A stretch of 11,577 nucleotides of DNA from a virus. Taxonomy: Duplodnaviria; Heunggongvirae; Uroviricota; Caudoviricetes. How positions within the stretch are numbered: position 1 is the stretch's first letter; every line of letters starts with the position of its first letter. Below the pieces are notes generated by a model. That model was given only the letters and a program-made list of their open reading frames with translations, was not told the DNA's origin and did no database searches. The DNA is taken from positions 1 to 11,577 of IMG/VR virus record IMGVR_UViG_3300018477_000015; one strand, written 5' to 3'. This document shows, piece after piece, positions 1 to 11,577 of the stretch. A program made the translations under genes and the position numbers.

Positions 1-87
1 GTGCTGGATTACATTGACGCGGTGACGGCAACAGATACCAGCACCGCGCCTGATATTATTTGGCCTGCTTTCCTTGAGACTGATTAA
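1..87 (+). CDS. tail fibre assembly protein (Tfa), C-terminal fragment; 5' end lies outside the window
   Basis: Frame 1 from base 1 reads VLDYIDAVTATDTSTAPDIIWPAFLETD followed by TAA at 85-87. The DTSTAPDI(E/I)WP motif is, as I remember it, the conserved C-terminus of lambda-type Tfa chaperones. No start codon in the window, so it is absent from the ORF track. Confidence 0.55.
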   Translation: MLDYIDAVTATDTSTAPDIIWPAFLETD

Positions 88-316
88 CCTCAATCAATAT
101 TGGTTCCCCTTTCTCATTAATTGTTAGCTCCATGCCCTGAGGAATTTCTGTCATAGTAAAAAACCAGTTGTCCTCCGGTAATTCAATAGCCCCGGTCACA
201 TCATGAAGACCGGGGATTACTTCAGTCAAAGTAACTGGATTAAACAGGCGCACAATAAACCCTCCAGGAAAAAGCATTTGATGATGGTCTGCCGTCGTAC
301 ATCTGGCAGCGGGCAT
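56..316 (-). CDS. hypothetical protein; possibly a short alternate tail-fibre assembly gene of the invertible segment
   Basis: 86-aa ORF convergent with the plus-strand Tfa fragment (the two stops overlap across 56-87), an arrangement like U/U' in Mu-type G segments. It lacks the conserved Tfa C-terminal motif and overlaps the upstream ORF by 77 nt, so coding status is uncertain. Confidence 0.3.
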   Translation of the reverse strand: MPAARCTTADHHQMLFPGGFIVRLFNPVTLTEVIPGLHDVTGAIELPEDNWFFTMTEIPQGMELTINEKGEPILIEVNQSQGKQAK

Positions 317-623
317 AAAAACCGGTATTTGTTACCTGATCATCCACGATCATTGAAACGTGAACATTATTAGGTGTGCTCTCGTAATCTGTTCTTATTC
401 TTTCCGCGATACTGATAAAACGTGAAAGTTTAGGCAGTGCAATTGGGTAAACGACTTTAGCCAGTCCATTATCATTAGACCCACCCGTTCCAAAGACTTC
501 TATTGCACCATCTGACCAGCGAATCCATGCACCATTGGCATTAGCTCCTCGCTGAATGATATATCTGGCTTCTCCCAAACCAACGTTTATGAAAATGCAG
601 AAATAACGATCAAATGGCATCAT
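240..623 (-). CDS. side tail fibre C-terminal receptor-binding segment, alternate unfused copy reading inward through the inversion crossover site
   Basis: The C-terminal portion resembles lambda Stf-type fibre tips by eye (YPIALP, VTNTGF, terminal WRVYCAPV versus lambda IRVMAIGY from memory). The ORF runs through the 26-bp crossover site at 570-595 and has no convincing RBS, as expected for a variable fibre segment expressed only after inversion fuses it to the constant part. Confidence 0.5.
   Translation of the reverse strand: MMPFDRYFCIFINVGLGEARYIIQRGANANGAWIRWSDGAIEVFGTGGSNDNGLAKVVYPIALPKLSRFISIAERIRTDYESTPNNVHVSMIVDDQVTNTGFYARCQMYDGRPSSNAFSWRVYCAPV
570..595. other. Hin/Gin/Pin-type inversion crossover site (26 bp, two imperfect inverted 12-bp half-sites around a central AA)
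   Basis: TTCTCCCAAACC-AA-CGTTTATGAAAA. It matches my recollection of hixL (TTCTTGAAAACCAAGGTTTTTGATAA) at about 20 of 26 positions and lies 55 bp upstream of the invertase start, the usual position. Confidence 0.6.
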
Positions 624-649
624 TCCTGCTTTTGTCAGGGAGATCTACC

Positions 650-1204
650 ATGCTTATTGGCTATGTACGTGTGTCAACAAATGACCAGAACACAGATCTA
701 CAACGTAATGCGCTGAACTGTGCAGGATGCGAGCTTATTTTTGAAGACAAGATAAGCGGTACAAAGTCCGAAAGGCCGGGACTGAAAAAACTGCTCAGGA
801 CATTATCGGCAGGTGACACGCTGGTGGTCTGGAAACTGGACCGGCTGGGGCGCAGTATGCGGCATCTTGTCGTGCTGGTGGAGGAGTTGCGCGAACGAGG
901 CATCAACTTTCGTAGTCTGACTGATTCAATTGATACCAGCACACCGATGGGGCGTTTTTTCTTTCATGTGATGGGGGCCCTGGCTGAAATGGAACGAGAA
1001 CTGATTGTTGAACGAACAAAAGCTGGACTGGAAGCTGCTCGCGCACAGGGACGAATTGGTGGACGTCGTCCCAAACTTACACCAGAACAATGGGCGCAGG
1101 CCGGGCGACTAATTGCATCAGGAGTTCCTCGCCAGAAGGTGGCGATCATTTATGATGTTGGCGTATCGACTTTGTATAAGAAGTTTCCGGTCGGAGATAA
1201 ATGA
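650..1204 (+). CDS. pin: serine recombinase, DNA invertase (Pin/Hin/Gin/Cin family)
   Basis: Translation from ATG 650 begins MLIGYVRVSTNDQNTDLQRNAL... with the catalytic-serine motif and C-terminal HTH (GRIGGRRPKLT...STLYKK), near-identical in pattern to e14 Pin as I recall it. AGGGAGA sits 6 nt upstream of ATG 650. The upstream ATG at 614 would add a non-conserved extension. Confidence 0.92.
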   Translation: MLIGYVRVSTNDQNTDLQRNALNCAGCELIFEDKISGTKSERPGLKKLLRTLSAGDTLVVWKLDRLGRSMRHLVVLVEELRERGINFRSLTDSIDTSTPMGRFFFHVMGALAEMERELIVERTKAGLEAARAQGRIGGRRPKLTPEQWAQAGRLIASGVPRQKVAIIYDVGVSTLYKKFPVGDK

Positions 1205-1284
1205 AACCGTAGCACGTCGTATGCAAGAACGTGCCACGGCTGGCTGATAAGCTTGTAAAAATATTGAACAGGGAGTGGAGCATT

Positions 1285-1932
1285 CTATGAAGCTAATTTG
1301 TTTAATTTCATTTGTAGTGACTTTACTTCTTGGTCGATAATGTCGAATCCCTTATTGACAGCATCTCTTAGCTCTGCATCAATATTTTTTATCCCTTGAG
1401 CATAATCTACCATTACATTTATTTTTGCATCATGTAATCTCTTATACATGGTTTTATCTTTGTTATTGTCTGCCATGCCAATAAGGATTTTTTCATAATC
1501 CTCAATGAGTTTGTTGTTTCCTTTAAATGATTGTATTAATGAGCGTGAATATGTGTATATGTTAATTATTGAGTCTCTAGCAGAATCATTTAGTTTTGCA
1601 ATGACATTCGCATTTTTCTCATAGAATGTGAAATTATCATCCCCTACAGGGAATGTGAGAATCAACATTTGTCCCGGTTTTATATTATCAATGTGTGTTT
1701 TCATCCTTTTATTATATAAATTGATTAGGGTGAAAACTTCTCCCTTAACTCCTTTTAATACTGAAAGTTGTAATTCAAGGGATTCTCTTTCTGTCTCTAC
1801 TTTAGACAGCTTAGCTTGTTGGGTAACTCCTTTTAGGGTAAACCATCCGCCAATAAGAGTACCAACTAGAGCTGTGAGGGAGGAGGATAACCATCCAGGT
1901 ATGCTATTTAAAAGATTACTAAATTCACTCAT
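1285..1932 (-). CDS. hypothetical membrane-anchored protein (single N-terminal TM helix, then coiled-coil and globular region); AT-rich accessory gene
   Basis: 215-aa ORF. Residues about 10-32 (IPGWLSSSLTALVGTLIGGWFTL) are hydrophobic, followed by a charged heptad-like stretch. Low GC compared with flanking phage genes. No family recognised. Confidence 0.6.
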   Translation of the reverse strand: MSEFSNLLNSIPGWLSSSLTALVGTLIGGWFTLKGVTQQAKLSKVETERESLELQLSVLKGVKGEVFTLINLYNKRMKTHIDNIKPGQMLILTFPVGDDNFTFYEKNANVIAKLNDSARDSIINIYTYSRSLIQSFKGNNKLIEDYEKILIGMADNNKDKTMYKRLHDAKINVMVDYAQGIKNIDAELRDAVNKGFDIIDQEVKSLQMKLNKLAS

Positions 1933-1990
1933 TATAAGTACTCGCTAATATTGAACGATATATATATCAAATTATTATAAAACTCGTCAG

Positions 1991-2269
1991 CTACTGGAGA
2001 AGGCTACCTGAACTTCGATCTATTCCTGCATCCATATAGTTGATGGTCTTCTGGAGCTCTTCGATTAGGGCAACAGCTTTTGCTCGAGAAATGCATATTA
2101 GTTGATCCGGAAATTCTTGTAAGGGCCAGTTTGGTATACAGGCCATGTTATCAGTGAAGGATGCAGACAAGTAAACTTCATTGGTAACCAGAGAATAGCT
2201 TACCTCAAAATTGGTGAGTTCCGGCAAACTGCTAACGTTTGACTCTTTTCTGCGCATAATATTATCCAT
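1991..2269 (-). CDS. hypothetical small protein; start uncertain (ATG at 2269 giving about 92 aa, or upstream ATG at 2419 giving 142 aa)
   Basis: Open frame in the AT-rich island. The N-terminal 50 residues of the long form are Cys/Trp-rich and contain the C9T6 tract, so the shorter form is favoured. No clear SD for either start. Confidence 0.35.
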   Translation of the reverse strand: MDNIMRRKESNVSSLPELTNFEVSYSLVTNEVYLSASFTDNMACIPNWPLQEFPDQLICISRAKAVALIEELQKTINYMDAGIDRSSGSLLQ

Positions 2270-2346
2270 GACTGTAATTATGTACAGGTGATGGTCTTCA
2301 ATTTCGAAGAGGGAGTCAAGGGGGAGTCTCAAATGAACCGTTATAG

Positions 2347-2361
2347 AAAAAAGGGGGGGGG
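2347..2361. repeat. homopolymeric tract A6G9 (C9T6 on the minus strand)
   Basis: Direct reading: aaaaaa at 2347-2352, ggggggggg at 2353-2361. Confidence 0.9.
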
Positions 2362-2409
2362 ATCTTTGTGTTGCTGAACTTATGCAAAATTTTTTTGCAC
2401 CATAAATCC

Positions 2410-2670
2410 AACAACACATTCAATAACACATTGCTGTATCACTATGAAAATAAATGTGTTTTTATTTGATTTCACACATATCACAATTAATACAGCGTTT
2501 AGTAATTAGTAAAGACATTTCAATGAATTACCGTTAAATCATTTTAAAATCAGTAAGTTGTATCGAGTTTGTATGCTTTACTGTCATTAACTTACTGTAT
2601 GTTGATCCAGTGTATTTAACCTTGATAAACTCAGTCCAGCAACACAAAACCGCAACACATTGCATTTTGT
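2410..2670. promoter_or_regulatory. AT-rich integrase-upstream region with repeated short motifs; candidate attP arm-site or int regulatory region
   Basis: AACACATT at 2413-2420, 2425-2432 and 2654-2661, with an inverted copy at 2453-2460. A 9-bp perfect inverted repeat CAGTAAGTT/AACTTACTG at 2551-2559 and 2589-2597. Repeated TTGTAT and TTACTGT motifs. Confidence 0.3.
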
Positions 2671-2732
2671 CCCGTAGAAAAGACTTGTATGTGTGTGCTT
2701 GTTTTCTGCGCCTACGCAGATAAGGATTGAGA

Positions 2733-4130
2733 ATGCCGCGCACTGTAACACATAATCCGGATAGCCCCAATAATGACGATGTTTTAGCCGCATCTGAAAA
2801 ATGGGACGCCTGTAAACCCCCCTATACCAGCGCACACATGAAAATCTGTGTTGCTGCCGCCAAAATCATCCTCGCTGCTTCCGGCGTGGCTCGCCGTTCC
2901 AAATACGAAAAAGAGAACTATCTCCGTATCGATTTCAGCAAAGCCGGTAAGGTTACATTTTACGCCGAGTTTCCAAAAAAGATGGGCCTCAAAGGTAAAA
3001 AGCTCGGCGAGTGGCCGGAGCTCGCTATTCAGCTGGCGCGCGAAAAAGCGCTAGGTATGGCTGACGGTGGCCTGCGTGCAGAGTCCGTACATGCAGCGCT
3101 GGAAATGTACCGGGATGACCTCAAAGCCAAAGTCGCCCGGCAGAAGCTGAGCCCGGACAGTTTCACAACCTACGGGGTGCGTATCGACCGGATTAAAGCA
3201 ACGTTCGGCGAGCGCGAGGTGTTCAGCGACGTAACATACAATCGGCTGGTGGAAGTGCTGGACGAGTGGATCGCTACTCGCTCGAACAATAACGCCCTGG
3301 AGTTGTTTGCCGAGCTCCGTCGGTTCTGGAAGTTCTGCGCACCTACTCTTTGCAACGGCCGCAATGTTGCCGCCAGTCTGCCAGATGATTATGTTTCCTC
3401 CCGCGTACAGAAACCTACCCCCACACGGCTTTTTACCGATATTGAATCAATCGCCCGACTCTGGCTCAATGTTGCTGCCTGCACCTCTGTACACCAGAAG
3501 AATGCTGTTCGCTTCATGATCATCACTGGTGTTCGTCCGATTAATGTCCATAACCTGCGCTGGGACTACGTTCACGAGGAGGCTGGTGAAATTGTTTATC
3601 CGGAAGGGGTTATCGGCATGCGAGGGGCTATGAAAACACAAAAGGCTTTCCGCCTGCCGATAACCCCTGAGATCCGGCGGATTATCGACGAGCAGAAAGC
3701 CTGGCGTGATTCAGTTCCTGAGTGCAACAGGGATTATGTATTTTTGCAGCCACGTGATCCAATGCAGCCATTTTCAAAACGATCACTAGATAAGCTGGTG
3801 AAAACATACAGCCCGGACGGGGCTGTAAAAGGAATAAAACATGATGGGACTGTTAAAGGGAAAGACGGTGCATTTAATACGATGTGCCGTAAATTCCTTA
3901 AGAGCAATGTTATTGCCTTGATGAAGGAAAGAGGCTATTCCCGCTCAGACCGAAGGGAAATCAGCCTCCTTTGCCTTCACCACTCCAGCAAGTCAGATGA
4001 CCCGATGGCAGAACATTACGACTTTTCTGATGAGATTTTACAGGAAGAGATTGCGTTGAAGCGCGAAGCTTTCGAGGCTCACGAGCGGAGCATACTTGCG
4101 CAGGTGGCATTGCTACGGCGGCGAGGTTAA
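2733..4130 (+). CDS. int: tyrosine-type site-specific integrase (P4-like, with N-terminal arm-binding-type domain)
   Basis: 465 aa from ATG 2733, with AAGGA 6 nt upstream; the track's 2727 start is a TTG. The N-terminus (YLRIDFSKAGKVTFYAEF...LGEWPELAIQLAREKA) fits the P4-int arm-binding pattern. The catalytic-domain landmarks are TGVRPINV (Arg), HDGTVKG and CLHHSS...AEHY (His/Tyr region). Confidence 0.85.
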   Translation: MPRTVTHNPDSPNNDDVLAASEKWDACKPPYTSAHMKICVAAAKIILAASGVARRSKYEKENYLRIDFSKAGKVTFYAEFPKKMGLKGKKLGEWPELAIQLAREKALGMADGGLRAESVHAALEMYRDDLKAKVARQKLSPDSFTTYGVRIDRIKATFGEREVFSDVTYNRLVEVLDEWIATRSNNNALELFAELRRFWKFCAPTLCNGRNVAASLPDDYVSSRVQKPTPTRLFTDIESIARLWLNVAACTSVHQKNAVRFMIITGVRPINVHNLRWDYVHEEAGEIVYPEGVIGMRGAMKTQKAFRLPITPEIRRIIDEQKAWRDSVPECNRDYVFLQPRDPMQPFSKRSLDKLVKTYSPDGAVKGIKHDGTVKGKDGAFNTMCRKFLKSNVIALMKERGYSRSDRREISLLCLHHSSKSDDPMAEHYDFSDEILQEEIALKREAFEAHERSILAQVALLRRRG

Positions 4131-4327
4131 TACTGGCTGCGACATTTTTGAATAAAAGCGTCGATATTTCGGCGCTCATAACGAACTACTTTTGCACTGA
4201 AACGAATTGGTGCCAGGATAGCCCGATGACGATGCTTAATATTCCACTCACATAGCGTTTTCTGTGTAATACCTAACTTTTGGCATACTTCATCCGGGGT
4301 GAGTAAATCGTCGGGTTTCTCGCTCAT
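4127..4327 (-). CDS. AlpA/excisionase-family small HTH DNA-binding protein (candidate recombination directionality factor)
   Basis: 66 aa. LLTPDEVCQKLGITQKTLCEWNIK...ILAPIRFSAKVVRYERRNIDAFI fits the AlpA/Xis winged-helix pattern. Its ATG overlaps the helicase stop (ATGA at 4324-4327) and its stop overlaps the int stop convergently. Confidence 0.65.
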   Translation of the reverse strand: MSEKPDDLLTPDEVCQKLGITQKTLCEWNIKHRHRAILAPIRFSAKVVRYERRNIDAFIQKCRSQY

Positions 4328-5718
4328 GCTATACCTCTCTTTTTCATGGCATCGAGCAGGATGTCCTGCACTGTTCGTTTTGAGTTGCGCCGCTCCATCA
4401 CCATTTCATCCATAGTGTCGGCAGCAATAATGTGGTGAATAAATACCGGACGATTGTGTCCGGCCTGTATCTGCCTGGTGGGGCCGATACGTTCAATAAT
4501 TTGCTGATATTGCTCCAGGTCCCACCAGTGTGAGAAAAATACCAGTATATTTCCGCCGTCCTGCATGTTCAGGCCGTGGCCCGCGCTGGCTGGGTGTGCA
4601 AAGAGAACAGGAATCTTTCCGGAATTCCAGTCGCGCAGTGTCTGTGGATCCTGGTCGAGGTGACGACCGCGAGGGAATGCTTTAAGCAAGCGTTCAAGAT
4701 CGTGTTTCCAGTGATAAGCAACCAGCACAGGTGCGCCAGCTGCTTCGGTCAGTATGCTGTCCAGCGCCTGTAGTTTGGTGTCATGCAGTTCTGACCAACT
4801 TCCGGTGTCATCTGTGTATACTGCGCCGCTGGCGATTTGCAGACACTTCAGTGTCTTTGCCGCGGCGTTCGGTGCTTCGATGCCTTCGCCATTCAGCTCG
4901 AGGAACATTTCCTTTTCCATTTCACGATACTGCTGACGGGCCTTCGGCGGCATATCCACGCGGATTACGTTATGGATGGGGTCTTTGATATCGAACCAGT
5001 CGGCCGCATCCAGCGAGAGGGTTACATCGGCTAACGCTCGCTGTATTTCACCCTGTGAGTGAGCAAAAGGCTCCAGTTTGGTCCAGCTCTGCCCCGGAAA
5101 CTGTATCGAGTTGAACCAGCGTGAGGTAAACGCGCCGTAAGTGCGCCCGAGACGTTGCCCCTGGTCCACAAACCACGATTGTCCCCACAAATCTACCAGG
5201 CCGTTCGGTGCTGGCGTACCGGTGAGATTTATCCAGCGCCGGACATACTTATGCGCCACTTTGCCCAGCGCCGCCGCGCGCTTACCACCACCGCGCAGCC
5301 GGAAGGATTTTAGCCGGGTGCTTTCATCTGGAATGACAGTACCGAACGGCCATCGTTCTCCCAATTCTTCAACCAGCCAGACAAGGTTATCGTAGTTGAT
5401 GGTGAACACGCTTGCGTTGCTGTTCGTCAGCGCCATAGAGCGCGCTTTGGCATTACCAATAATTGGCTGCACCTCGATATTGCGCAAATGTCCCCACTTC
5501 AGTGCTTCATCCGGCCATGTGCTGGCAGCCACGCGCAGCGGCGCGAGGACCAGTGCGGGGCATGTTTCTGCCCCTGCCATAAAGAGATCTTCCAGCGCAG
5601 TGAGCGTTGCCACGGTTTTACCCATTCCCATCCCCGCCCAGATGTTGCCGCGCAGGGTTTCGGTTTCGTGGTTGATAATGAGATCTTGGTAGGGGCGAGG
5701 TATATATTTTGGGGGCAT
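4324..5718 (-). CDS. SNF2-family ATP-dependent helicase (phage replication or recombination module)
   Basis: 464 aa with RPYQ, Walker A AGMGMGKT, DExx box IPDESTRL, motif III LTGTPAPN and a C-terminal GLNMQ...ERIGPTRQIQAG block resembling SNF2 motifs V/VI. AGGAG sits 9 nt upstream of ATG 5718. Confidence 0.85.
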   Translation of the reverse strand: MPPKYIPRPYQDLIINHETETLRGNIWAGMGMGKTVATLTALEDLFMAGAETCPALVLAPLRVAASTWPDEALKWGHLRNIEVQPIIGNAKARSMALTNSNASVFTINYDNLVWLVEELGERWPFGTVIPDESTRLKSFRLRGGGKRAAALGKVAHKYVRRWINLTGTPAPNGLVDLWGQSWFVDQGQRLGRTYGAFTSRWFNSIQFPGQSWTKLEPFAHSQGEIQRALADVTLSLDAADWFDIKDPIHNVIRVDMPPKARQQYREMEKEMFLELNGEGIEAPNAAAKTLKCLQIASGAVYTDDTGSWSELHDTKLQALDSILTEAAGAPVLVAYHWKHDLERLLKAFPRGRHLDQDPQTLRDWNSGKIPVLFAHPASAGHGLNMQDGGNILVFFSHWWDLEQYQQIIERIGPTRQIQAGHNRPVFIHHIIAADTMDEMVMERRNSKRTVQDILLDAMKKRGIA

Positions 5719-5732
5719 ATAATATGGCTCCT

Positions 5733-5768
5733 AAACAACAAAAGGCCAATTTAGGCCTTTTGTTGTTT
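5733..5768. other. perfect 15-bp inverted repeat with 6-nt loop (possible attenuator, weak terminator or processing hairpin)
   Basis: AAACAACAAAAGGCC-AATTTA-GGCCTTTTGTTGTTT. It lies between the stop of the 305-aa gene (5781) and the helicase RBS, and is U-rich on either strand. Confidence 0.5.
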
Positions 5769-5780
5769 TAAAAATGTTAT

Positions 5781-6698
5781 TTATAATAGTGCTGTTACTA
5801 TTGCATCTTTAAAAATATTTTCTTCTTCATTTATTAAAGGTGATGACAGATGAATAATTACTTCTTTTCCTGTCAATACTATTTGCTCGACTTGAAATCC
5901 TGCGTTGTGTAGTCTTTGGCGTAACTTTTCTAGTGCTGATTTTGATATACTAAATCCTTCACTCCTTATAGTATAACTGGCAACTCCATTTTTAATAATA
6001 TCTACAGAGTTGTCAATTTCCTGCTGCGAGTAATTTTTCGGTGAGTCGAAAAATCTGGATTTTGTCGTTGCTGTTGCCCTAAGAGATATCAATAATGATT
6101 TGATATCTTTAATCTCAGATGCCAGATACTCAGTTTCTGATACTTCTTTCTGGTCTAGTTGTGCAACTTTGAAAGTGCCAAAATGTTTGAGGAATGTTGT
6201 GTATTCAGGATCAGTTACTGACTTTAAATATGTTTCTTTTATCTTGCTCGCAAGTCTTTCTTTGAATAAATTGATTGATTGGTATCTTAAATCCGAAGGG
6301 TACTCTAAATGTTCAATTGATGAAATGTCAAAGCTATAAGGAGTGCGCTCGTCCTTAATAATTACGGTCGGTTTGTCAAATGCGAGACGCATTCCTAATT
6401 CAAACATTACATTAGCGTTTCGAGCACTTATATCGCAAACAACTATGGGGTTTTCATAAAGATTTTGAACAATTCGTTTTTGTATTACTGCAACATCATC
6501 ATCTGAACTTACCAAATTTGCCTTGAATCCGGCATCATTTGATGCTTCACAAATAATGTCATGAACATTTCTCCAATGTCCAGTGGGATAACCTTCTATG
6601 TCCGCAATTGGCATAATAATGCCGCATATATGAGGTGGCATATTTTTGTTGTCTTTTACATCATCTTGGTTTATTTCTTTCGTTTGTTGCTTAGCCAT
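5781..6698 (-). CDS. hypothetical protein with N-terminal TIR-like / nucleoside 2-deoxyribosyltransferase-like (Rossmannoid) domain and uncharacterised C-terminal domain; AT-rich insertion
   Basis: 305 aa. N-terminal region has ICGIIMPIA, then DDDVAVIQKRIVQNLYENPIVVCDISARNANVMFELGMRLAFDKPTVIIKDE and EYPSDLRY. The FE(L)G acidic motif after a buried strand is typical of TIR-like (PF10137-type) and NDT-like folds as I recall them. GC content is clearly lower than in the flanking helicase and VRR-NUC genes. Confidence 0.5.
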   Translation of the reverse strand: MAKQQTKEINQDDVKDNKNMPPHICGIIMPIADIEGYPTGHWRNVHDIICEASNDAGFKANLVSSDDDVAVIQKRIVQNLYENPIVVCDISARNANVMFELGMRLAFDKPTVIIKDERTPYSFDISSIEHLEYPSDLRYQSINLFKERLASKIKETYLKSVTDPEYTTFLKHFGTFKVAQLDQKEVSETEYLASEIKDIKSLLISLRATATTKSRFFDSPKNYSQQEIDNSVDIIKNGVASYTIRSEGFSISKSALEKLRQRLHNAGFQVEQIVLTGKEVIIHLSSPLINEEENIFKDAIVTALL

Positions 6699-6713
6699 AG
6701 CTTACACAGACTC

Positions 6714-6998
6714 CTATTGTAATTTTTTGCCTAATATACATGAAAGCTCCTTACTATCCAGTACTACCACGGTAAAGCCCAGTTTTCGCAGACGTTCATG
6801 CTCGCGCAACTGATCAGGTCGTGGTGGTTTGCCTGGTGCTTTGCATTCGACAAAGACGATGCGACCGCCGGGTAGCAGAACAATGCGATCTGGTACCGAG
6901 CGGAGACCGGGAGATACGAACTTAAAAGCAACCCCGCCAGCCTTTTTTACTTCAGCGACGAGGTGCTTTTCGATTAGGTTTTCACGTTCATAGGCCAT
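6714..6998 (-). CDS. VRR-NUC domain nuclease (PD-(D/E)xK family)
   Basis: 94 aa. GLRSVPDRIVLLPGGRIVFVECKAPGKPPRPDQ contains the D...E-x-K signature in the size and arrangement typical of VRR-NUC, a usual partner of phage SNF2 helicases. Confidence 0.8.
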   Translation of the reverse strand: MAYERENLIEKHLVAEVKKAGGVAFKFVSPGLRSVPDRIVLLPGGRIVFVECKAPGKPPRPDQLREHERLRKLGFTVVVLDSKELSCILGKKLQ

Positions 6999-7192
6999 TA
7001 GCTTTCGCCTTCCTGCTTTTTGCGTTTCTTCATGCAGATAGCGCAGTTCTCAGGATGGTCATGCCATTCGTCAATCCTGATACCTGTGAACATCCATTTT
7101 CCGCATAGTGATATGGCTTCCCCCGAATTAAAGAAATGTGCTTTTTTCGACAGGGCGGGGAACCCCCAACCTTTATTATCGATATTAGACAT
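6998..7192 (-). CDS. small putative zinc-binding protein (64 aa), translationally coupled to the VRR-NUC gene
   Basis: Strong SD (AAGGAGG, 6 nt before ATG 7192). Its stop overlaps the VRR-NUC start (TAATG at 6996-7000). Contains a C-x13-H-x-H-x4-C-x2-C motif (SLCGKW...EWHDHPENCAIC). Confidence 0.55.
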   Translation of the reverse strand: MSNIDNKGWGFPALSKKAHFFNSGEAISLCGKWMFTGIRIDEWHDHPENCAICMKKRKKQEGES

Positions 7193-7370
7193 CGTCCACC
7201 TCCTTACGCTTTTCGCGCATGTTCTGCATCAGACAAAAATCAAACCGACGTTCGCTTTGGCCCAGACCTGCATCGCCCGGTCGTACCCGCTGGACTGTTC
7301 AAGGCGCAAAGCCTCCCGCGCAGTCCGGTAATAAAGCGGACTGTCCCGGTATTTAAATGACATAGGGTTT

Positions 7371-7403
7371 TTATTCCCAAATAAAAAACCCCGCAATGCA
7401 GGG
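7371..7403 (-). terminator. rho-independent terminator downstream of the 253-aa gene (minus-strand sense)
   Basis: Minus-strand RNA forms CCCUGC-AUU-GCGGGG (6-bp stem with one G-U pair) followed by UUUUUUAUUU. It lies about 24 nt after the stop at 7428. Confidence 0.5.
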
Positions 7404-7427
7404 TTGTAATCAACAATAAGGGGGTAA

Positions 7428-8189
7428 TTACGAGGAAGCGTTAGCTATTTGAGCTTGTGTAAATTCGAAACCAGAATTTTGTAACCGTTGCACTAGACGA
7501 GGAACTGTTTCACGTACATGGTCGTTGAAATTCAGATACAAAATCCCGTTAGCATCAGAAGGCTGTTCTAGGTGCTGTTTCTGAAGGATTGCTACATTGC
7601 TGCGCCCTAAGGACGAAAGAAGCATACCCATCTCGAGTACAACGTTCTGTCTTGCGCGGGGTTGGATTTCTGCTTCACCGGCGCGCTTTGAGTATCCCAT
7701 ATCATCAGGTGTCAAAAGAACAATCCCGAAACGGGTAGCAGTTTGTCCTTGCCCAATTTCACGTTCAAGCTCTTCAATAATGGTGAGTCCAGTCCCTCCC
7801 GTATTCTGCAAAATGAAATGGTCTGGTAATCCAAGTTTATGAAGGATTAGCTCAAGTTGTTCCTTTGCAGTATGGTCATGGCCGTGAACAATGAATATCT
7901 TTTTGGGAAGCTCAGATGGCTGTTCTACGGCTAGTGGTGTTGCCGTGGGGGGCGTTCCTAAATGGGACATTATTGCAGTTTCAACATTGGGACGTTCTTG
8001 AGGGTTACCTTGAAACTGAATGGTCCGGGTGGTGTAAAGGTTAACAATTACGCCATTCGTTAAACGATAGCAGTCATAAGTCTCACGCTGTTCGTGGGAA
8101 AAATTGGTGAACCCACACTCCCTCAAAAAGTCAGGAAAAGATTCTCTCGGGTATGGATAGGTGATCGGCATTTCAGTTAGTTCCTGCAT
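7428..8189 (-). CDS. TIR-like domain protein (C-terminal TIR-like/NDT-like Rossmannoid domain, uncharacterised N-terminal domain of about 95 aa)
   Basis: 253 aa. C-terminal half has KIFIVHGHD, then FGIVLLTPDDMG...PRARQNVVLEMGMLLSSLGRSNVAILQK and QPSDANGILYLNF, the same motif order as the 305-aa protein and matching my recollection of the PF10137-type TIR-like family. AGGA about 10 nt upstream of ATG 8189. Followed by its own terminator. Confidence 0.55.
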   Translation of the reverse strand: MQELTEMPITYPYPRESFPDFLRECGFTNFSHEQRETYDCYRLTNGVIVNLYTTRTIQFQGNPQERPNVETAIMSHLGTPPTATPLAVEQPSELPKKIFIVHGHDHTAKEQLELILHKLGLPDHFILQNTGGTGLTIIEELEREIGQGQTATRFGIVLLTPDDMGYSKRAGEAEIQPRARQNVVLEMGMLLSSLGRSNVAILQKQHLEQPSDANGILYLNFNDHVRETVPRLVQRLQNSGFEFTQAQIANASS

Positions 8190-8253
8190 AAGTATTGTTC
8201 CTTTAATTTACTCGAATTCAGCATGTCGCCATAGCTCGATAAGGTGAGTTATA

Positions 8254-10350
8254 TCAATCTTTTTTGTAGTGGTACGCCTCAAAGCCGCCAGCGTTCAGCG
8301 GAATATCGGGTGCCCATTCGGGGTTAGTGGAGAGAAGCGCGGAAAGCGCTTTATCGTTGAAATCTTCTGTGTCTGGTGCTTCGGTGATCACCTCGTCGTG
8401 TACCGTTAGCACAATGCTGTAACCGGCACCCTCGATCAGCGGCATGTTTCTGGCCAGAACGTCGCGGGCGGCCGCCTGGGTGACGTTCTCCACCAGCTTT
8501 CCGCCGTAGGTTTTGAGTCGTTGCCATTTACGCGAATAAGAGTTAACACCCATGTAGGTGATATTCCCTTGTTCGATAACCGGAGACGGGTAGCATACAG
8601 CGCGTCCGGATGGTAGCTGTATGCGCAGCCACGCGCCATCACGTCGGATTTTAAGATAGCCGCAATACAATGTTTTTTGCGGTATGGCGATTGCTGTGCG
8701 GACAGTGCGCTCCAGCTCGTACCAGAAATCGCAGGTCGCCGGGTGCGCCCTGCGCCACAGGCGCTTGAGCGAGTCACATGCGATGAATACACGCTCGGAA
8801 AGGCCAAAGGTCGACTTACGTTTAACCGATTCGTCGTACCAGCTTTTCGCCTCGCGGATAACATCGCGGGGAATGTTTGGCAGTGCGGCGTTCGCCAGCT
8901 CGTCGAGATCGAGACCGTAAACCAGAGCAAAAGTGATGAAAGCCGATACACCACCTCCATAACCCAGACCGAGTTCCATGACTTTACCGATCTGACGCAT
9001 GTGTTTATCAACATCATCTGGTGCAATATCGAAAGCTTTTGCATACGCCAGTTTATATAAGTCCGGACCCGTTCCAGCGTCATACTCTCTGAATGCATTC
9101 AGTTTCCATTCTTCTCCCGCCAGCCATGCCAGCATACGGCCTTCAATGTTTGACAAGTCACTTACCACCAGTTTTTTGCCTGTTGGCGCGATAATGCAGC
9201 CACGTAACGCTGAACTGGTTAGTTCCATGATATTGTCAAACAGCAGGTCTGCACATCCGGCTTTCAGTGCTTCGATGCCTTCGTCTATTTGTTCCTGTTT
9301 TAGTGAAGGGCGGGGAAGGTTCTGGGGCTGGAATAGCCGTCCGGCCCAACGACCGGTACGTGACGCCCCGCAGAACTGTAGCGTACCGCGTAAGCGCCCG
9401 TCGTGGCTTACGCCTTTCATCAGTGCCTTGTATTTACTGGTGCTGGTAGTACTGGCTTGCAGGCGGATAGCCAGCAGTTCTTTCACGGCAGATGATAAAT
9501 CGGGGTCGGCCATACGACGTTCCAGGGTACTGCGTTGCATGTCTGGTAGCTCCACACCGTAGGATTCAACGATGTGCTTAATCAACGCGTCCCGTTGTGT
9601 GGCTGCCTGCACTTCGCCATCAGTCATTTCCTGTGTACGCTTTGCCAGGCGCTTTTGCTCCTGGTCTACCGCTTCGATCGCAGCGCGCGCGAGTTGCATG
9701 TCCATGCAGACGCCCCGGTCGTTGATCTGCTGATCACGATGCCAGAGCGCCAGCTCTGTCCCCTGATAATTCCACTTCGGCAGACGTTTATAGACTTCGC
9801 GCATTGCTTCGATATCCAGTCCGGCGTAAGCAACAAAGCGCCGCCATTCTTCCGGATGGGTTTTACTGGTGGCCCGACGCAGTTTGCTGTTTTTCGGATG
9901 TGGCTTACAGAACAGCTGGATCAGCGCTTTACCTTCTTTGTCCTTCGCTTTGTCTTGCGGGACGCCTAGTACTTCGCAGAGTTCCCCCAGAGACCCCGGG
10001 AGACCGTGCGCCAGCGCCTGCACCATCGTGTCGCGCCAACGTTCGACTGGCGGTGCCAGTCGCGGCATTGCATAACGCAGAACGGTGCGGTCGAAGTGAG
10101 AGTTATGGAAATAAAGCAGGGTTTCAGGGTCTGCGATTGCTTCGTATAAGCCGTGTGGAATACCACCACCGGCAGTGATATCCCACACGTTTACTGGCCC
10201 GTCGTTGATAGCCCATGCGAAAAGCATCACTTCAACGCCTTCGGCATACGCATGGGTACCGTTCGTAATAGGGATTTCGCAATAGGTTTCCAGGTCGCCC
10301 CAGAGAATACTTTGATGTTGTTTATTTGAGGGGACTATATTATTTTTCAT
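8254..10350 (-). CDS. family A DNA polymerase with N-terminal 3'-5' exonuclease domain (phage-type PolA)
   Basis: 698 aa. Exo motif LWGDLETY, polymerase motif [21 protein letters not shown], motif [17 protein letters not shown], motif C LTVHDEV. Confidence 0.9.
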
Positions 10351-10384
10351 ATGGGCAAACTAGCTAATAAAGTTGAGGAAAAAA

Positions 10385-10588
10385 ATGTCTGAATCTAAGT
10401 TCAAACCTGGAGACCGCGTACAACATCTTTCTGGTGGGCCTGTTCTTGTGGTTGTTAGCACAGGATATATTCCTGCAACAGCTTTTAATGGCGACTTCAT
10501 TCGCGTAACTTGTGAATTTTGGGATGAATCTAAAAAAGCTTTCGTAAAACAGGATTTTGTTGAAACTTCTCTTGAAGATTACGAATAA
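10385..10588 (+). CDS. DUF2158 (YodC-like) small protein
   Basis: About 67 aa from ATG 10385, with GAGGA 5 nt upstream; the track's 10373 start is a TTG. KPGDRVQHLSGGPVLVV...CEFWDESKKAFVKQDFVETSL fits the GD.V.L.SGGP...C.WFD...K..F pattern of the DUF2158 family. It lies opposite in orientation to the surrounding replication genes. Confidence 0.65.
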   Translation: MSESKFKPGDRVQHLSGGPVLVVVSTGYIPATAFNGDFIRVTCEFWDESKKAFVKQDFVETSLEDYE

Positions 10589-10604
10589 CTCATAACACAA
10601 TCCT

Positions 10605-10628
10605 CAAAGCGCCCCTAAGGGCGCTTTG
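10605..10628. terminator. bidirectional hairpin terminator between convergent genes
   Basis: Perfect 10-bp stem CAAAGCGCCC / GGGCGCTTTG with CTAA loop, followed by GCGTTT on the plus strand. It sits 17 nt after the DUF2158 stop and 4 nt after the DUF2815 stop. Confidence 0.55.
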
Positions 10629-10632
10629 GCGT

Positions 10633-11181
10633 TTAAATCAGTGCTTCAGCATCAGCACCTTCGCTGATATCGTCGAAATCGTCAGCGCTTGCCACTCCGC
10701 CGCCAGCGAATGCATCGCCGTCTCGCAGGAACTGGACTCCGCCGAGTGAGGCATTAATGCGTTTACCGAAATTATTGTCCTGTGCCCAGATATCGATAAC
10801 GGCGTTTACATAGCACCCTGCATAGGGACGTCCATCAGCCTGAATTAGTGGCGAACGATCGCGATCAAGAACAGCTGGGCGCGCTTTGTTAGCAGCATTC
10901 AGGAAGAAATTACCGGGGAAGCCTTCATACTCTGCTTTTTCATCACCATCATGCAGGCACAGATTGAGTTTTTTCTCCAGTTGGTTATAAATGGGCTCCC
11001 ACTTCTCTCCCCATTTTTCCTTCGCTACCTGCTTCATAGCTTTACGGATTTCTTCCAGTTGTGGGTGTTTGGGAGACATTAAAAATACTGCGGAGAAACG
11101 CGGATCGCCTTCGCCGTTTACAGTTTTAGCTTCAAACAGAGACGGGAAGGCCAGACGAACATTGTTCAGCTTCAGTTTCAT
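10633..11181 (-). CDS. DUF2815-family phage protein (ssDNA-binding-like), with acidic C-terminal tail
   Basis: 182 aa beginning MKLKLNNVRLAF, the N-terminal signature I associate with DUF2815 proteins found next to phage family A polymerases. AAGGAAA SD 8 nt upstream. C-terminus is DDFDDISEGADAEALI. Confidence 0.65.
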   Translation of the reverse strand: MKLKLNNVRLAFPSLFEAKTVNGEGDPRFSAVFLMSPKHPQLEEIRKAMKQVAKEKWGEKWEPIYNQLEKKLNLCLHDGDEKAEYEGFPGNFFLNAANKARPAVLDRDRSPLIQADGRPYAGCYVNAVIDIWAQDNNFGKRINASLGGVQFLRDGDAFAGGGVASADDFDDISEGADAEALI

Positions 11182-11196
11182 GGGTATTTCCTTAAA

Positions 11197-11577
11197 TCAG
11201 ATGAGGTCTGCGGTTAGCGTATCGTCGGATACGTCGTCGAAATCATTTACAGGGTTGATATTGAGTGCGGGGCGTGGGTCTGACTCGGGAACGACGGTTG
11301 GTTTACCATCAGCTCGTGTTATCAGTGCCTCGACTTTTGACCAACGGCGCGGACTGGCCTTTTTGATAAGTTTTTCGGCTTTTGTGGGACTAATAAGTTT
11401 AAAGTCGAATACTTCTTCAGTTTTGTACCTGAACTGGTCCTTCAGAAGTGCGCGAGCTGCCTCTTCATCACTCCAGGCCCGGTTACCTTGTTTTCCTGTT
11501 ACCAGTTTAAACCCCGGTACCGGATGTCCGGCATTGAGTTCATTGTGAACCCGGTCCCGTACTGCCTTTAGCCAGGA
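11197..11577 (-). CDS. phage replication-module protein, C-terminal 126-aa fragment (5' end outside window); possibly the DUF2800-type nuclease that usually precedes DUF2815
   Basis: Minus-strand frame is open from the window edge to TGA at 11197-11199 and ends ...NDFDDVSDDTLTADLI. The stop lies 15 nt upstream of the DUF2815 start. It is not in the ORF track because there is no Met in the window. The family assignment is a guess from gene order. Confidence 0.45.
   Translation of the reverse strand, partial: SWLKAVRDRVHNELNAGHPVPGFKLVTGKQGNRAWSDEEAARALLKDQFRYKTEEVFDFKLISPTKAEKLIKKASPRRWSKVEALITRADGKPTVVPESDPRPALNINPVNDFDDVSDDTLTADLI

Follow-up and report, generated by a model that had tools for sequence, protein, structure and literature searches.

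Two separately acquired cargo genes with TIR-like domains, probably anti-phage, in the replication module of an Escherichia coli prophage family

Two accessory genes, coding for proteins of 305 and 253 amino acids, are carried in the replication module of a temperate Escherichia coli phage or prophage, within a stretch of 11,577 nucleotides (IMG/VR record IMGVR_UViG_3300018477_000015, positions 1 to 11,577; hereafter the window). The reading that we favour, and consider probable, is that they represent two separately acquired single-gene cargo cassettes of the abortive-infection type, residing in different insertion slots and each combining a sensor with an effector. The two proteins are homologous at the superfamily level only and neither gene needs the other; an anti-phage role of both is probable. 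A preliminary description of the region, made from the sequence, had regarded them as distant paralogues with a possibly permuted domain order that could act together, and the bearing of the present results on this proposal is discussed below.

Replication module and its cargo slots

The window represents the replication (early) end of the phage or prophage genome, with backbone genes for a DUF2815 SSB, PolA, ANR, VRR-NUC, an SNF2 helicase, an HTH protein and an integrase. The features located below all lie on its minus strand. The 305-aa gene (5781..6698) and the 253-aa gene (7428..8189) are separated by a 64-aa ORF and the VRR-NUC gene, and the coordinates and reading frames given in the preliminary description proved right. 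Slot 1, holding the 253-aa gene, lies between the family A DNA polymerase gene (8254..10350), which also borders slot 3, and a frameshifted remnant of an ANR-family regulator (7185..7363; mapped across from strain Rb-50, whose identical region is annotated in RefSeq). Slot 2, holding the 305-aa gene, lies between the VRR-NUC nuclease gene (6714..6998; phrog_93, E 3e-31, with a sub-threshold Pfam match), kept in all the backbone relatives, and the SNF2-type helicase gene (4324..5718). The 64-aa Cys/His-rich ORF (6998..7192; phrog_2358), which had been called a Zn ribbon, belongs to the semi-variable backbone, its position being occupied by DUF4406 or DUF7446 in relatives. DUF4406, which belongs to the NDT clan and is frequent among relatives, was considered as a substitute occupant of the 305-aa slot, an arrangement that would have pointed to replacement in function; the idea was rejected, as DUF4406 sits between ANR and VRR-NUC.

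In relatives without the TIR insert, ANR comes directly after the polymerase gene; strain DEC5E, for example, has an intact ANR 5 nt after pol. The slots of the relatives contain SIR2/PDC-S25, PDC-S42, DUF6338, DUF4145, membrane proteins or methyltransferases, or are empty, and SIR2 (PDC-S25) occupies the third slot in some relatives and is absent from this window. Many of these alternative cargos are encoded on the opposite strand. The 253-aa and 305-aa genes run in the same direction as the replication operon and are tightly packed, with gaps of 64 and 15 nt, and may therefore be expressed in lytic growth and not in lysogeny. A consensus scan found a terminator-like hairpin of eight pairs followed by a T-run (7387..7405), 23 nt past the stop codon of the TIR gene, in a region where the count of such sites was not above that in shuffled sequences; promoter-like sites were likewise no more numerous than in shuffles.

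This embedded, co-directional arrangement favours an alternative in which the two proteins serve the phage and not the lysogen, as early enzymes of nucleotide metabolism or counter-defence that hydrolyse, for example, nucleotides, or host NAD-derived or cyclic-nucleotide immune signals during replication. The frequency in this module of DUF4406 as a further NDT-clan gene points in the same direction. However, candidate defence genes occur in the neighbouring slots and most of the backbone relatives replicate without either gene. Together with the family data presented below, these observations make a phage-serving role unlikely in our estimation.

The 253-aa protein: a Cap12-type TIR with a TBP-like domain

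The 253-aa protein (phrog_16442; RefSeq "TIR domain-containing protein") is, as judged from its sequence, clearly a bona fide PF10137 Cap12/Pycsar TIR. It matches PF10137 with 108.4 bits (E 2.9e-31; residues 97-222; profile positions 1-118 of 119), well above the threshold of 24.7, as do all 35 aligned relatives. The TIR domain comprises residues 96-224 (7518..7904), with the codon of the invariant Glu186 at 7632-7634, and shares the motifs FGI-x-L-TPDD, R-x-NVV-x-E-x-G and PSD with solved Cap12 chains (9lmq and 7un8, TIR-STING; PycTIR, 8jsj); the resemblance of the 305-aa protein to these chains is confined to the fold and the NVxxExG...PSD stretch. In the AlphaFold model, the TIR part is of low confidence (pLDDT 55-75). 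With the NCBIfam Cap12 equivalogs the protein reaches 30-35 bits, below their cut-off of 450. The protein is a member of PDC-S35, matching the PADLOC HMM (PDLC05003) over its full length (E 1.3e-108; positions 3-245 of 245) and in a single-gene context.

The N-terminal domain (residues 8-80; 7950..8168), a candidate sensor, has a TBP-like β-α-β4-α order in a confident model (pLDDT ~97; H15-24, E30-34, E38-43, E47-52, E56-61, H66-77). This is the order of the N-terminal TBP-like domains of RNase HIII and RnlA, and Foldseek matches it to Thermovibrio RNase H3 (4py5_A; probability 0.99, E 0.025), where the matched part is the substrate-binding N-domain bound to an RNA/DNA hybrid. Weak matches were found to PF15935 and PF11858, with RnlA_toxin seen in 4 of the 35 members and DUF3378 in one. 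Unlike those proteins, the 253-aa protein has no nuclease domain after the TBP-like domain, and its sequence matches remain sub-threshold. By analogy, the N-domain may bind nucleic acid. It evolves fast, with a mean pairwise identity of 33% in the family as against 75% for the TIR domain.

The protein thus joins a Cap12-type TIR to a TBP-like domain in the position of a cyclic-nucleotide sensor. It differs from CBASS and Pycsar effectors in carrying no STING, SAVED or cNMP-binding sensor, and no CD-NTase or pyrimidine cyclase was found among the ORFs of the window or the Pfam matches of the main proteins. The TBP-like domain in the sensor place suggests direct sensing without a signalling enzyme. 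PDC-S35 was predicted as a candidate from its embedding in BREX, DISARM and RM loci (bioRxiv 10.1101/2024.01.29.577857), in a study which presents the PDC systems as predictions for future functional work and reports no phenotype for them. The present protein is likewise encoded by a single gene, here inside a prophage replication module and not embedded in BREX, DISARM or RM loci. The occurrence of the family within host defence loci argues against a phage-serving role. A literature search found no mention of PDC-S35 or the RefSeq protein accessions, and no direct match to an integron-cassette or prophage study covering these genes.

The 305-aa protein: a member of a very large unnamed family

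The 305-aa protein (phrog_3634, "unknown function") belongs to a very large unnamed family, in which a conserved N-domain is followed by a helical stalk and a hypervariable C-domain. The family comprises 4466 matches at 90% clustering, and at 50% clustering 9503 clusters at E<=1e-3 and 1389 at E<=1e-30. In the AlphaFold model the protein is resolved into a domain (23-162), a helix (188-209) and a C-domain (232-304), with low pLDDT at 174-183 and 212-227. The flavodoxin-fold domain of the TIR/NDT superfamily extends over residues 22-165 (6204..6635), with the codon of the invariant Glu100 at 6399-6401; the linker and long helix, a possible stalk or oligomerisation element, over residues 166-224 (6027..6203; mean pairwise identity 42%); and the small C-terminal domain, a candidate sensor or specificity domain, over residues 225-305 (5784..6026). 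The last has the order β-β-α-β-β-α (E232-236, E241-246, H253-265, E270-276, E279-284, H290-304; pLDDT ~94-97), a mean pairwise identity of 12%, sequence similarity that is seen just among the closest 20-30 relatives and no significant match in Pfam. In both families a hypervariable small domain adjoins a highly conserved enzyme domain, as is usual for immunity proteins of the sensor-effector kind, and this again speaks against a phage-serving role. With its conserved pocket (H41, W42, D89, N94, N96, E100, R104, D108 and others) and its hypervariable C-domain, the protein is well suited as a candidate for a new sensor-effector system.

The N-domain touches both the TIR and the NDT families below their gathering thresholds. 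The match to PF10137 reaches 16.2 bits (E 0.011; threshold 24.7 bits), with 15 of 71 relatives matching at E<=0.1, and that to PF05014 (NDT) 13.9 bits (E 0.06; threshold 28.8 bits), the best E among the 71 relatives being 0.0035; more members of the family touch the NDT than the TIR model. The PADLOC CBASS TIR-effector model matches at E 1e-6, while no PADLOC PDC model does, and the family profile retrieved nothing meaningful from the PDB chain sequences. The best structural match of the enzyme domain is MilB, a nucleotide hydrolase. Given this match and the more frequent contacts with the NDT model, the substrate could be NAD+ or equally another nucleotide. The closeness to a nucleotide N-glycosidase is also in favour of a role in phage nucleotide metabolism. 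The NDT-like N-glycosidases (PF05014; MilB, 4ohr; Rcl, 2khz; NDTs, 7o62 and 6evs), which the protein matches far under the gathering score, are stand-alone metabolic proteins of ~150 aa and, unlike the 305-aa protein, possess neither a stalk nor a variable C-domain.

The closest working analogue is Swarozyc (DUF4062, KpSwz), in which a TIR-like domain, a stalk and an auxiliary domain make up a single-gene NADase defence; its N-terminal domain is distantly similar to TIR and NDT, its C-terminal auxiliary domain is needed for sensing, and the gene has a patchy distribution and spreads horizontally (bioRxiv 10.64898/2026.05.01.722283). The 305-aa protein, also encoded by a single gene of patchy distribution and horizontal spread, has the same succession of TIR-like domain, helical stalk and C-domain, and its catalytic Glu, E100, lies close to the position of E97 in KpSwz; this is a resemblance in build and not family membership. 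It is smaller and has another C-domain; the protein has no match to DUF4062 (PF13271) at E<=10, and PF13271 is missing from the 17 families matched at E<=0.1 by any of the 71 relatives.

Members of the 305 family occur in many bacterial phyla, mostly outside phages, and have also been found in a Vibrio integron cassette array and in the early (nin-like) region of a lambdoid prophage. The last setting would suit an early phage enzyme, but the broad distribution and the cassette array do not, nor does a decayed Enterobacter prophage in which frameshifts or truncations affect pol, SSB and helicase but the 305 homologue is intact. Neighbouring genes include integrases, transposases and known defence genes, a purely descriptive observation. 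This survival, the lambdoid and integron settings and the neighbours are evidence that the gene itself is under selection and mobile.

Homology of the enzyme domains

The preliminary description had proposed that the two proteins share an ordered set of four motifs. All the motifs it quoted are found, and in its order, and two of the four exceed chance. Motif 3 reads ARNANVMFELGM in the 305-aa and ARQNVVLEMGM in the 253-aa protein and motif 4 HLEYPSD and HLEQPSD; both proteins thus have an NVxxExGM helix with the invariant Glu (E100 in the 305 and E186 in the 253 family) followed by HLExPSD, the sole stretch with statistical support. Motifs 1 (ICGIIMPIA/KIFIVHGHD) and 2 (VVCDIS/VLLTPDD) correspond to the first and third strands in both AlphaFold models and give no detectable sequence signal. 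As extended hhalign alignments (global mode or low mact) mis-register the strands, this part of the proposal rests on model topology.

Comparison of the whole-family profiles with hhalign gave a probability of 42.5% (E 2.6e-4), and of the domain-only profiles 55-58% (E 1e-4). BLASTP of the two proteins gave weak short HSPs (best E 0.01-0.04) that are not significant alone. Both models have the fold order β-α-β-α-β-α-β-β-α, and both domains show the flavodoxin-like β-α core and the conserved Glu opening the third helix that characterise the TIR/NDT superfamily. Fold, profiles and invariant Glu together indicate that both proteins carry a homologous domain of catalytic type, and the term TIR-like is justified in the broad sense.

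That the shared motifs arose by convergence or chance between unrelated Rossmann-like proteins is very improbable. The hhalign score of 34.1 exceeds, by a wide margin, those of all 100 column shuffles (median 13.6, maximum 21.8); the match covers the catalytic helix, strand and PSD loop by which PF10137 is defined, and aligns with the Cap12 structures; the Glu is invariant in both families; the PADLOC TIR-effector match of the 305-aa protein is independent evidence; and among 48,164 PDB chains, Cap12 TIR-STING ranks first or second with either model. The relationship is one at the superfamily level, and a local duplication finds no support, since the 305-aa gene has a GC content of 35% as against ~46-47% in the TIR gene region (50-56% in the backbone) and the histories of the two genes differ.

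Unrelated small domains

A swap of the same two domains, suggested earlier from a resemblance by eye between the C-terminus of the 305-aa and the N-terminal domain of the 253-aa protein, finds no support. The hhalign probability is near background (7.7-10.6% in local and 0.5% in global mode) and the confident models differ in topology, β-β-α-β-β-α in the former and β-α-β4-α in the latter. The score of 18.8 does lie above the column-shuffle maximum of 15.5; yet the same 305-aa segment (helix 253-265 and GFQVE) fits equally well or better to the helix at the C-terminal end of the 253-aa protein (BLASTP E 0.010; hhalign score 18.4), and therefore represents a generic amphipathic-helix-plus-GF motif. 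The small domains are therefore unrelated. A looser form of the idea holds, in that each protein has a conserved enzyme domain and a fast-evolving small domain, located at opposite ends.

Independent assortment of the two genes

The two genes were further proposed to form one functional system related by the domain swap, as a signal generator with a degrader or effector or as two cooperating specificities. Their distance of 0.7 kb, common direction of transcription and common catalytic motif are in its favour, as is the fact that each of the 24 E. coli genomes carrying the 305-aa gene has the TIR gene too. These 24 near-identical genomes, however, belong to one prophage lineage (>=99.9% identity) and count as a single observation. 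All four combinations of presence and absence are observed on the prophage backbone: both genes in this lineage, the TIR gene alone in 23 further E. coli genomes and 35 IMG/VR loci, a 305-aa homologue alone in two other backbone prophages (one of Providencia) and the decayed Enterobacter prophage, and neither gene in ~96 E. coli genomes. One genome has its 305-aa gene interrupted by IS1 and its TIR gene intact.

Off the backbone, a 253-like TIR lies within 10 kb at one of 157 loci of the 305 family and a 305-like gene at one of 77 loci of the TIR family. Thus, both families are found together at just 2 of 234 loci outside this lineage; these two unrelated loci (L122 and L081), with one member of each family within 3-9 kb, are a further point in favour of cooperation. 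Among 80 genomes, no gene stood out as a conserved partner of the 305 family, the recurring ones being antisense ORF artefacts and ABC ATPases of a generic kind. The conserved co-occurrence and adjacency across lineages expected of an obligate two-gene system were not found, and the co-occurrence check proposed in the preliminary description essentially fails.

The logic envisaged there is that of Thoeris, a two-gene TIR anti-phage system with a ThsB TIR sensor and a ThsA effector. Here, in contrast, no ThsA-type effector (SIR2-SLOG or Macro) is present in the window, the TIR is of the Cap12 type with no other Pfam TIR model matched at E<=0.1, and the two genes essentially do not co-occur elsewhere. 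The distribution data largely refute the cooperating, domain-swapped pair, against which the background similarity of the small domains also speaks; we give it very little credence, and it is not worth further pursuit.

Proposed mechanism and significance

In the reading that we prefer, of independent cassettes, each protein is predicted to be self-contained and to work by abortive infection, to the advantage of the lysogen. The variable small domain would recognise an infection cue, this recognition would lead to oligomerisation or rearrangement of the conserved domain, and the latter would then cleave the N-glycosidic bond of NAD+. By analogy with Cap12-type TIRs, such NAD+ cleavage is likely for the 253-aa protein. 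For the 305 family we suggest, tentatively and with somewhat less than even confidence, a TIR/NDT-like N-glycosidase that senses through its hypervariable C-terminal domain and represents a new single-gene anti-phage system which parallels Swarozyc and is distinct from it, possibly acting on a nucleotide other than NAD.

The 305-aa protein provides a handle on a huge TIR/NDT-like family that is modelled by none of the family libraries used here. The replication module shared by this widespread family of E. coli prophages offers three or more interchangeable slots for cargo. They hold the PADLOC candidates PDC-S35, PDC-S42 and PDC-S25/SIR2 as well as uncharacterised genes, and the module is thus a compact site for mining and testing new immunity genes. 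If the proposed roles are true, this prophage lineage would stack two independent NAD- or nucleotide-targeting immunity genes, and three in those relatives that also carry SIR2.

Relationship of the enzyme domains

The two accessory proteins encoded on the minus strand at 7428-8189 (253 aa) and 5781-6698 (305 aa) are homologues within the TIR/NDT N-glycosidase superfamily, a relationship that is real but very distant. A genuine Cap12-type TIR, the 253-aa protein matches PF10137 (CAP12/Pycsar TIR) with 108 bits over residues 97-222, and its gene is an already catalogued candidate, the product being a full-length member of the PADLOC candidate PDC-S35 (E 1e-108). The 305-aa protein matches PF10137 with just 16 bits (E 0.011) and the PADLOC CBASS TIR-effector model over residues 54-134 (E 1.1e-6); it is assigned by no family model of Pfam, NCBIfam or PADLOC and represents a distinct, unmodelled family between TIR and NDT. 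When 71 members of this family were scanned against Pfam, weak matches to PF05014 (NDT) were obtained for 41 and to PF10137 for 15, with none reaching the gathering threshold and none matching DUF4062.

Family alignments were built from database relatives for the 305-aa (71 sequences) and the 253-aa (35 sequences) families. Comparison of the whole families with hhalign gave a probability of 42.5% (E 2.6e-4) and that of the enzyme domains alone 55-58% (E about 1e-4). The matched stretch is always the same ~30 columns, NVMFELGMRLAFDKPTVII...HLEYPSD in the 305-aa protein and NVVLEMGMLLSSLGRSNVAIL...HLEQPSD in the 253-aa protein, and the score of 34.1 is above that of every one of 100 column-shuffled controls, which had a median of 13.6 and a maximum of 21.8. 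The helix shared by the two carries a Glu invariant in each family, E100 in the 305-aa and E186 in the 253-aa protein; these are paired in the profile alignment, and in solved Cap12 TIR-STING chains the residue aligned to E186 is the Glu of NVVFEFG. In the AlphaFold models the order β-α-β-α-β-α-β-β-α is common to both enzyme domains, with the motifs ICGIIMPIA/KIFIVHGHD in the first strand and VVCDIS/VLLTPDD in the third.

The catalytic stretch, the invariant Glu, the common fold and the weak Pfam matches together thus place the homology at the superfamily level. The preliminary description, which is confirmed in part, had termed the proteins distant paralogues; all the motifs it quoted are found in the order stated, with statistical backing that differs by motif. 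By sequence alone the two strand motifs give no signal, and they fall out of register when hhalign is made to align a longer stretch. The proposed kinship accordingly stands as membership of the TIR superfamily with a shared fold, its sequence support being confined to the catalytic helix, strand and loop.

Comparison of the small domains

It had also been proposed that the C-terminus of the 305-aa protein corresponds to the N-terminal domain of the 253-aa protein, as a swap of the same two domains. Such a swap is not supported by the profile comparisons or the structural models. The hhalign values lie between 0.5 and 10.6% (10.6% with the sub-alignment of the 305-aa family; 7.7% local and 0.5% global with a purpose-built alignment of 32 C-termini). 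The score of 18.8 does exceed the column shuffles (maximum 15.5), a control that is lenient because shuffling removes helix periodicity, and the segment concerned, EKLRQRLHNAGFQVE in the 305-aa protein, aligns no worse with PRLVQRLQNSGFEF, the C-terminal helix of the 253-aa protein (BLASTP E 0.010, hhalign 18.4). Both small domains are modelled with a pLDDT of around 95-97 and their topologies differ: the element order is (β)-α-β-β-β-β-α, TBP-like, in the 253-aa N-domain and β-β-α-β-β-α in the 305-aa C-domain. The former resembles the N-terminal substrate-binding domain of RNase H3 (Foldseek probability 0.99) and has weak RnlA_toxin and DUF3378 matches.

A looser version of the proposal does hold, namely that each protein combines a highly conserved enzyme domain with a far more variable small domain, which is C-terminal in the 305-aa protein and N-terminal in the 253-aa protein. 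In the 305-aa family, mean pairwise identity is 69% for the enzyme domain and 12% for the small domain; in the 253-aa family the values are 75% and 33%, respectively.

The window ORFs and the Pfam and NCBIfam matches give the 253-aa protein no CD-NTase or cyclase partner and no cyclic-nucleotide sensor, and a role as a CBASS or Pycsar effector is therefore ruled out; its TBP-like domain stands at the position of the sensor of those effectors.

Gene organisation of the window

Gene content was examined with a six-frame ORF list and a Pfam scan. A block of minus-strand genes, as is usual for the replication module of a temperate phage, comprises a DUF2815/Enc34-type SSB (10633-11181), a family A DNA polymerase (8254-10350), the 253-aa TIR gene, a 64-aa Cys/His-rich ORF (6998-7192; ORF list), VRR-NUC (6714-6998), the 305-aa gene, a SNF2-type helicase (4324-5718) and a small HTH gene (4127-4327), beyond which lies a tyrosine integrase on the plus strand (2727-4130). 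A 2.6-kb region is 99.6-99.8% identical in the induced E. coli phages vB_EcoM-689R2, -611R5 and -606R2, and in 24 complete E. coli genomes, where the prophage adjoins yfhL, the identity is 99.8-100%. The products are named "TIR domain-containing protein" (253 aa) and "hypothetical protein" (305 aa) in RefSeq. Its annotation also has an ANR-family regulator gene, disrupted by a frameshift, in the interval from the TIR gene to the 64-aa ORF (7185-7363, minus strand; surviving 55-aa ORF 7229-7396). The ANR gene, broken in the window, is whole in relatives without the TIR insert, such as strain DEC5E. A terminator-like hairpin, AACCCTGCATTGCGGGGTT, with a T-run lies 23 nt past the TIR gene stop (7387-7405, minus strand), which suggests that a terminator arrived with the TIR insert and now sits partway through the replication operon; VRR-NUC, the 305-aa gene and the helicase may consequently need a separate promoter.

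Positions 1-2700 carry tail-fibre assembly genes and a Hin-type DNA invertase (614-1204, plus strand) matching P2-like and other myoviruses, whereas the integrase of the chromosomal prophage is flanked by yfhL. The window therefore appears to run across the junction (attP side) at which the ends of a phage genome, excised or circular, are joined. Two minus-strand ORFs between the invertase and the integrase are possible extra cargo genes at the attachment-site end: one of 215 aa (1285-1932), in a stretch of 33% GC, with no match in Pfam, PHROGs, NCBIfam or PADLOC, and one of 142 aa (1991-2419; phrog_17793).

Insertion slots and distribution

The TIR gene and the 305-aa gene occupy two separate insertion slots of the prophage backbone, between the polymerase and ANR (slot 1) and between VRR-NUC and the helicase (slot 2). 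In DEC5E the polymerase is followed after 5 nt by the intact ANR gene, without a TIR gene, and slot 2 holds a cytosine methyltransferase and one more gene; in IAI1 the TIR gene is present and slot 2 holds an unrelated gene on the opposite strand. A third slot, between the SSB and the polymerase, contains a 71-aa ORF alone in the window (10373-10588, plus strand; phrog_3261) and a SIR2 gene in E. coli Rb-50. Slots 2 and 3 of 38 IMG/VR relatives carry more than a dozen unrelated cargos, including SIR2_2/PDC-S25, PDC-S42/DUF7946, DUF6338, DUF4145, membrane proteins and a C5 methyltransferase, or are empty.

The SIR2 protein of the third slot is 493-500 aa long (13707-15188 of the Rb-50 locus; 6290-7792 of locus L108), the L108 copy having a PADLOC PDC-S25 match and a weak ThsA-like SIR2 domain; prophages with it therefore hold up to three NAD-related candidate effectors. 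At the position of the 64-aa ORF of the window, between ANR and VRR-NUC, relatives often carry a 99-aa DUF4406 protein of the nucleoside-deoxyribosyltransferase clan (for example, 5238-5537 of the locus from E. coli O55:H7 DEC5E).

Among 5,426 complete E. coli genomes, 143 match the backbone region, 47 the TIR gene and 24 the 305-aa gene, whose copies are at least 99.9% identical and hence of one lineage. One of these 24 copies is split by IS1 beside a whole TIR gene (E. coli JNEC-KY203, NZ_AP045179.1 1259624-1261318), and 305-aa homologues occupy slot 2 without a TIR gene in one Providencia prophage and one other backbone prophage (IMG/VR). Away from the backbone, a 253-like TIR gene was found near only one of 157 305-family loci (80 in species genomes, 77 on viral contigs; ±10 kb), 9 kb apart, and a 305-like gene at one of 77 other TIR-family viral loci. 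No conserved neighbour was found for the 305-aa family. The suggestion that the two genes act together is not supported, given these separate slots, in which the genes assort independently, the single-gene distribution of both families, the near absence of joint occurrence elsewhere and the lack of a conserved neighbour, and the verdict is that there is no functional pairing. Absence of joint occurrence elsewhere had been named in the preliminary description as a finding that would refute its proposal, and this is essentially what the counts show.

The single viral locus with both (L122, IMG/VR contig 3300003856_000014, 544-6021) encodes a 295-aa 305 relative, two membrane proteins, a 327-aa protein, a 241-aa TBP-TIR relative and a 381-aa protein, three unrelated genes separating the two relatives and an endolysin-like gene adjoining. 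It is the only other site found with both families close, in what resembles a cluster of accessory or defence genes in an unrelated prophage.

The 305-aa family is very large: clustering at 90% identity gives 4,466 clusters, and at 50% there are 9,503 (E ≤ 1e-3) or 1,389 (E ≤ 1e-30). It is distributed in Proteobacteria, Bacteroidota, Acidobacteriota, Verrucomicrobiota, Planctomycetota and others, with N-domain identities of 45-70%. Members occur in a lambdoid prophage early region and, as a 273-aa protein (8001-8822 of loci L167-L169), in Vibrio parahaemolyticus, in what looks like a chromosomal integron cassette array. This array is a long run of short same-strand genes with recurring ~30-codon ORFs between them, and also contains a BstA_C protein and acetyltransferases. 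Direct neighbours, in a purely descriptive listing, are a mixture of integrases, transposases, known defence genes (MADS, AriA, SoFic, AbiU, AbiLi, dCTPase, TIR_2) and housekeeping genes. Several entries (P0047, P0057, P0086, P0100) are labelled "RNA helicase" by the source databases, a name supported by neither sequence nor model and probably a propagated mis-annotation.

In a decayed Enterobacter quasiroggenkampii prophage with the same backbone (L003, 7161-12385), the SSB, polymerase and helicase are split over several frames, the polymerase has lost its C-terminus and VRR-NUC its N-terminus by deletion, and a 305-family homologue (310 aa, 69% identity) remains an intact ORF. Its survival in a dead prophage, together with the mostly non-phage distribution of the family, speaks against the main rival explanation, by which the phage itself would benefit from both genes, through nucleotide metabolism or counter-defence. 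That explanation would suit two genes co-oriented with the replication operon and packed inside it, and a 305-aa domain nearest to the nucleotide hydrolase MilB; however, the proteins have hypervariable domains and most backbone relatives do without either gene, and it is considered unlikely.

Probable biological roles

The favoured reading is that each protein would be an autonomous sensor-effector. The variable domain may detect an infection cue, which for the TBP-like domain could be a duplex or hybrid of nucleic acids, or else a protein of the phage; recognition would lead to assembly or rearrangement of the enzyme domain, and the ensuing hydrolysis of NAD+ would abort the infection and protect the lysogen population. 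NAD+ is the likely substrate of the Cap12-type TIR, and that of the 305-aa protein may be another nucleotide.

The recently described Swarozyc, a DUF4062 TIR-like NADase with distant likeness to TIR and NDT, has its catalytic Glu at position 97 and a helical stalk; its auxiliary C-domain turns on NAD+ depletion upon binding the phage portal (bioRxiv 10.64898/2026.05.01.722283). It is the closest working analogue of the 305-aa protein, the likeness being one of architecture; unlike Swarozyc, the 305-aa protein falls outside DUF4062. The 305-aa gene represents a large, unnamed TIR/NDT-like family and is a more interesting lead than the 253-aa gene.
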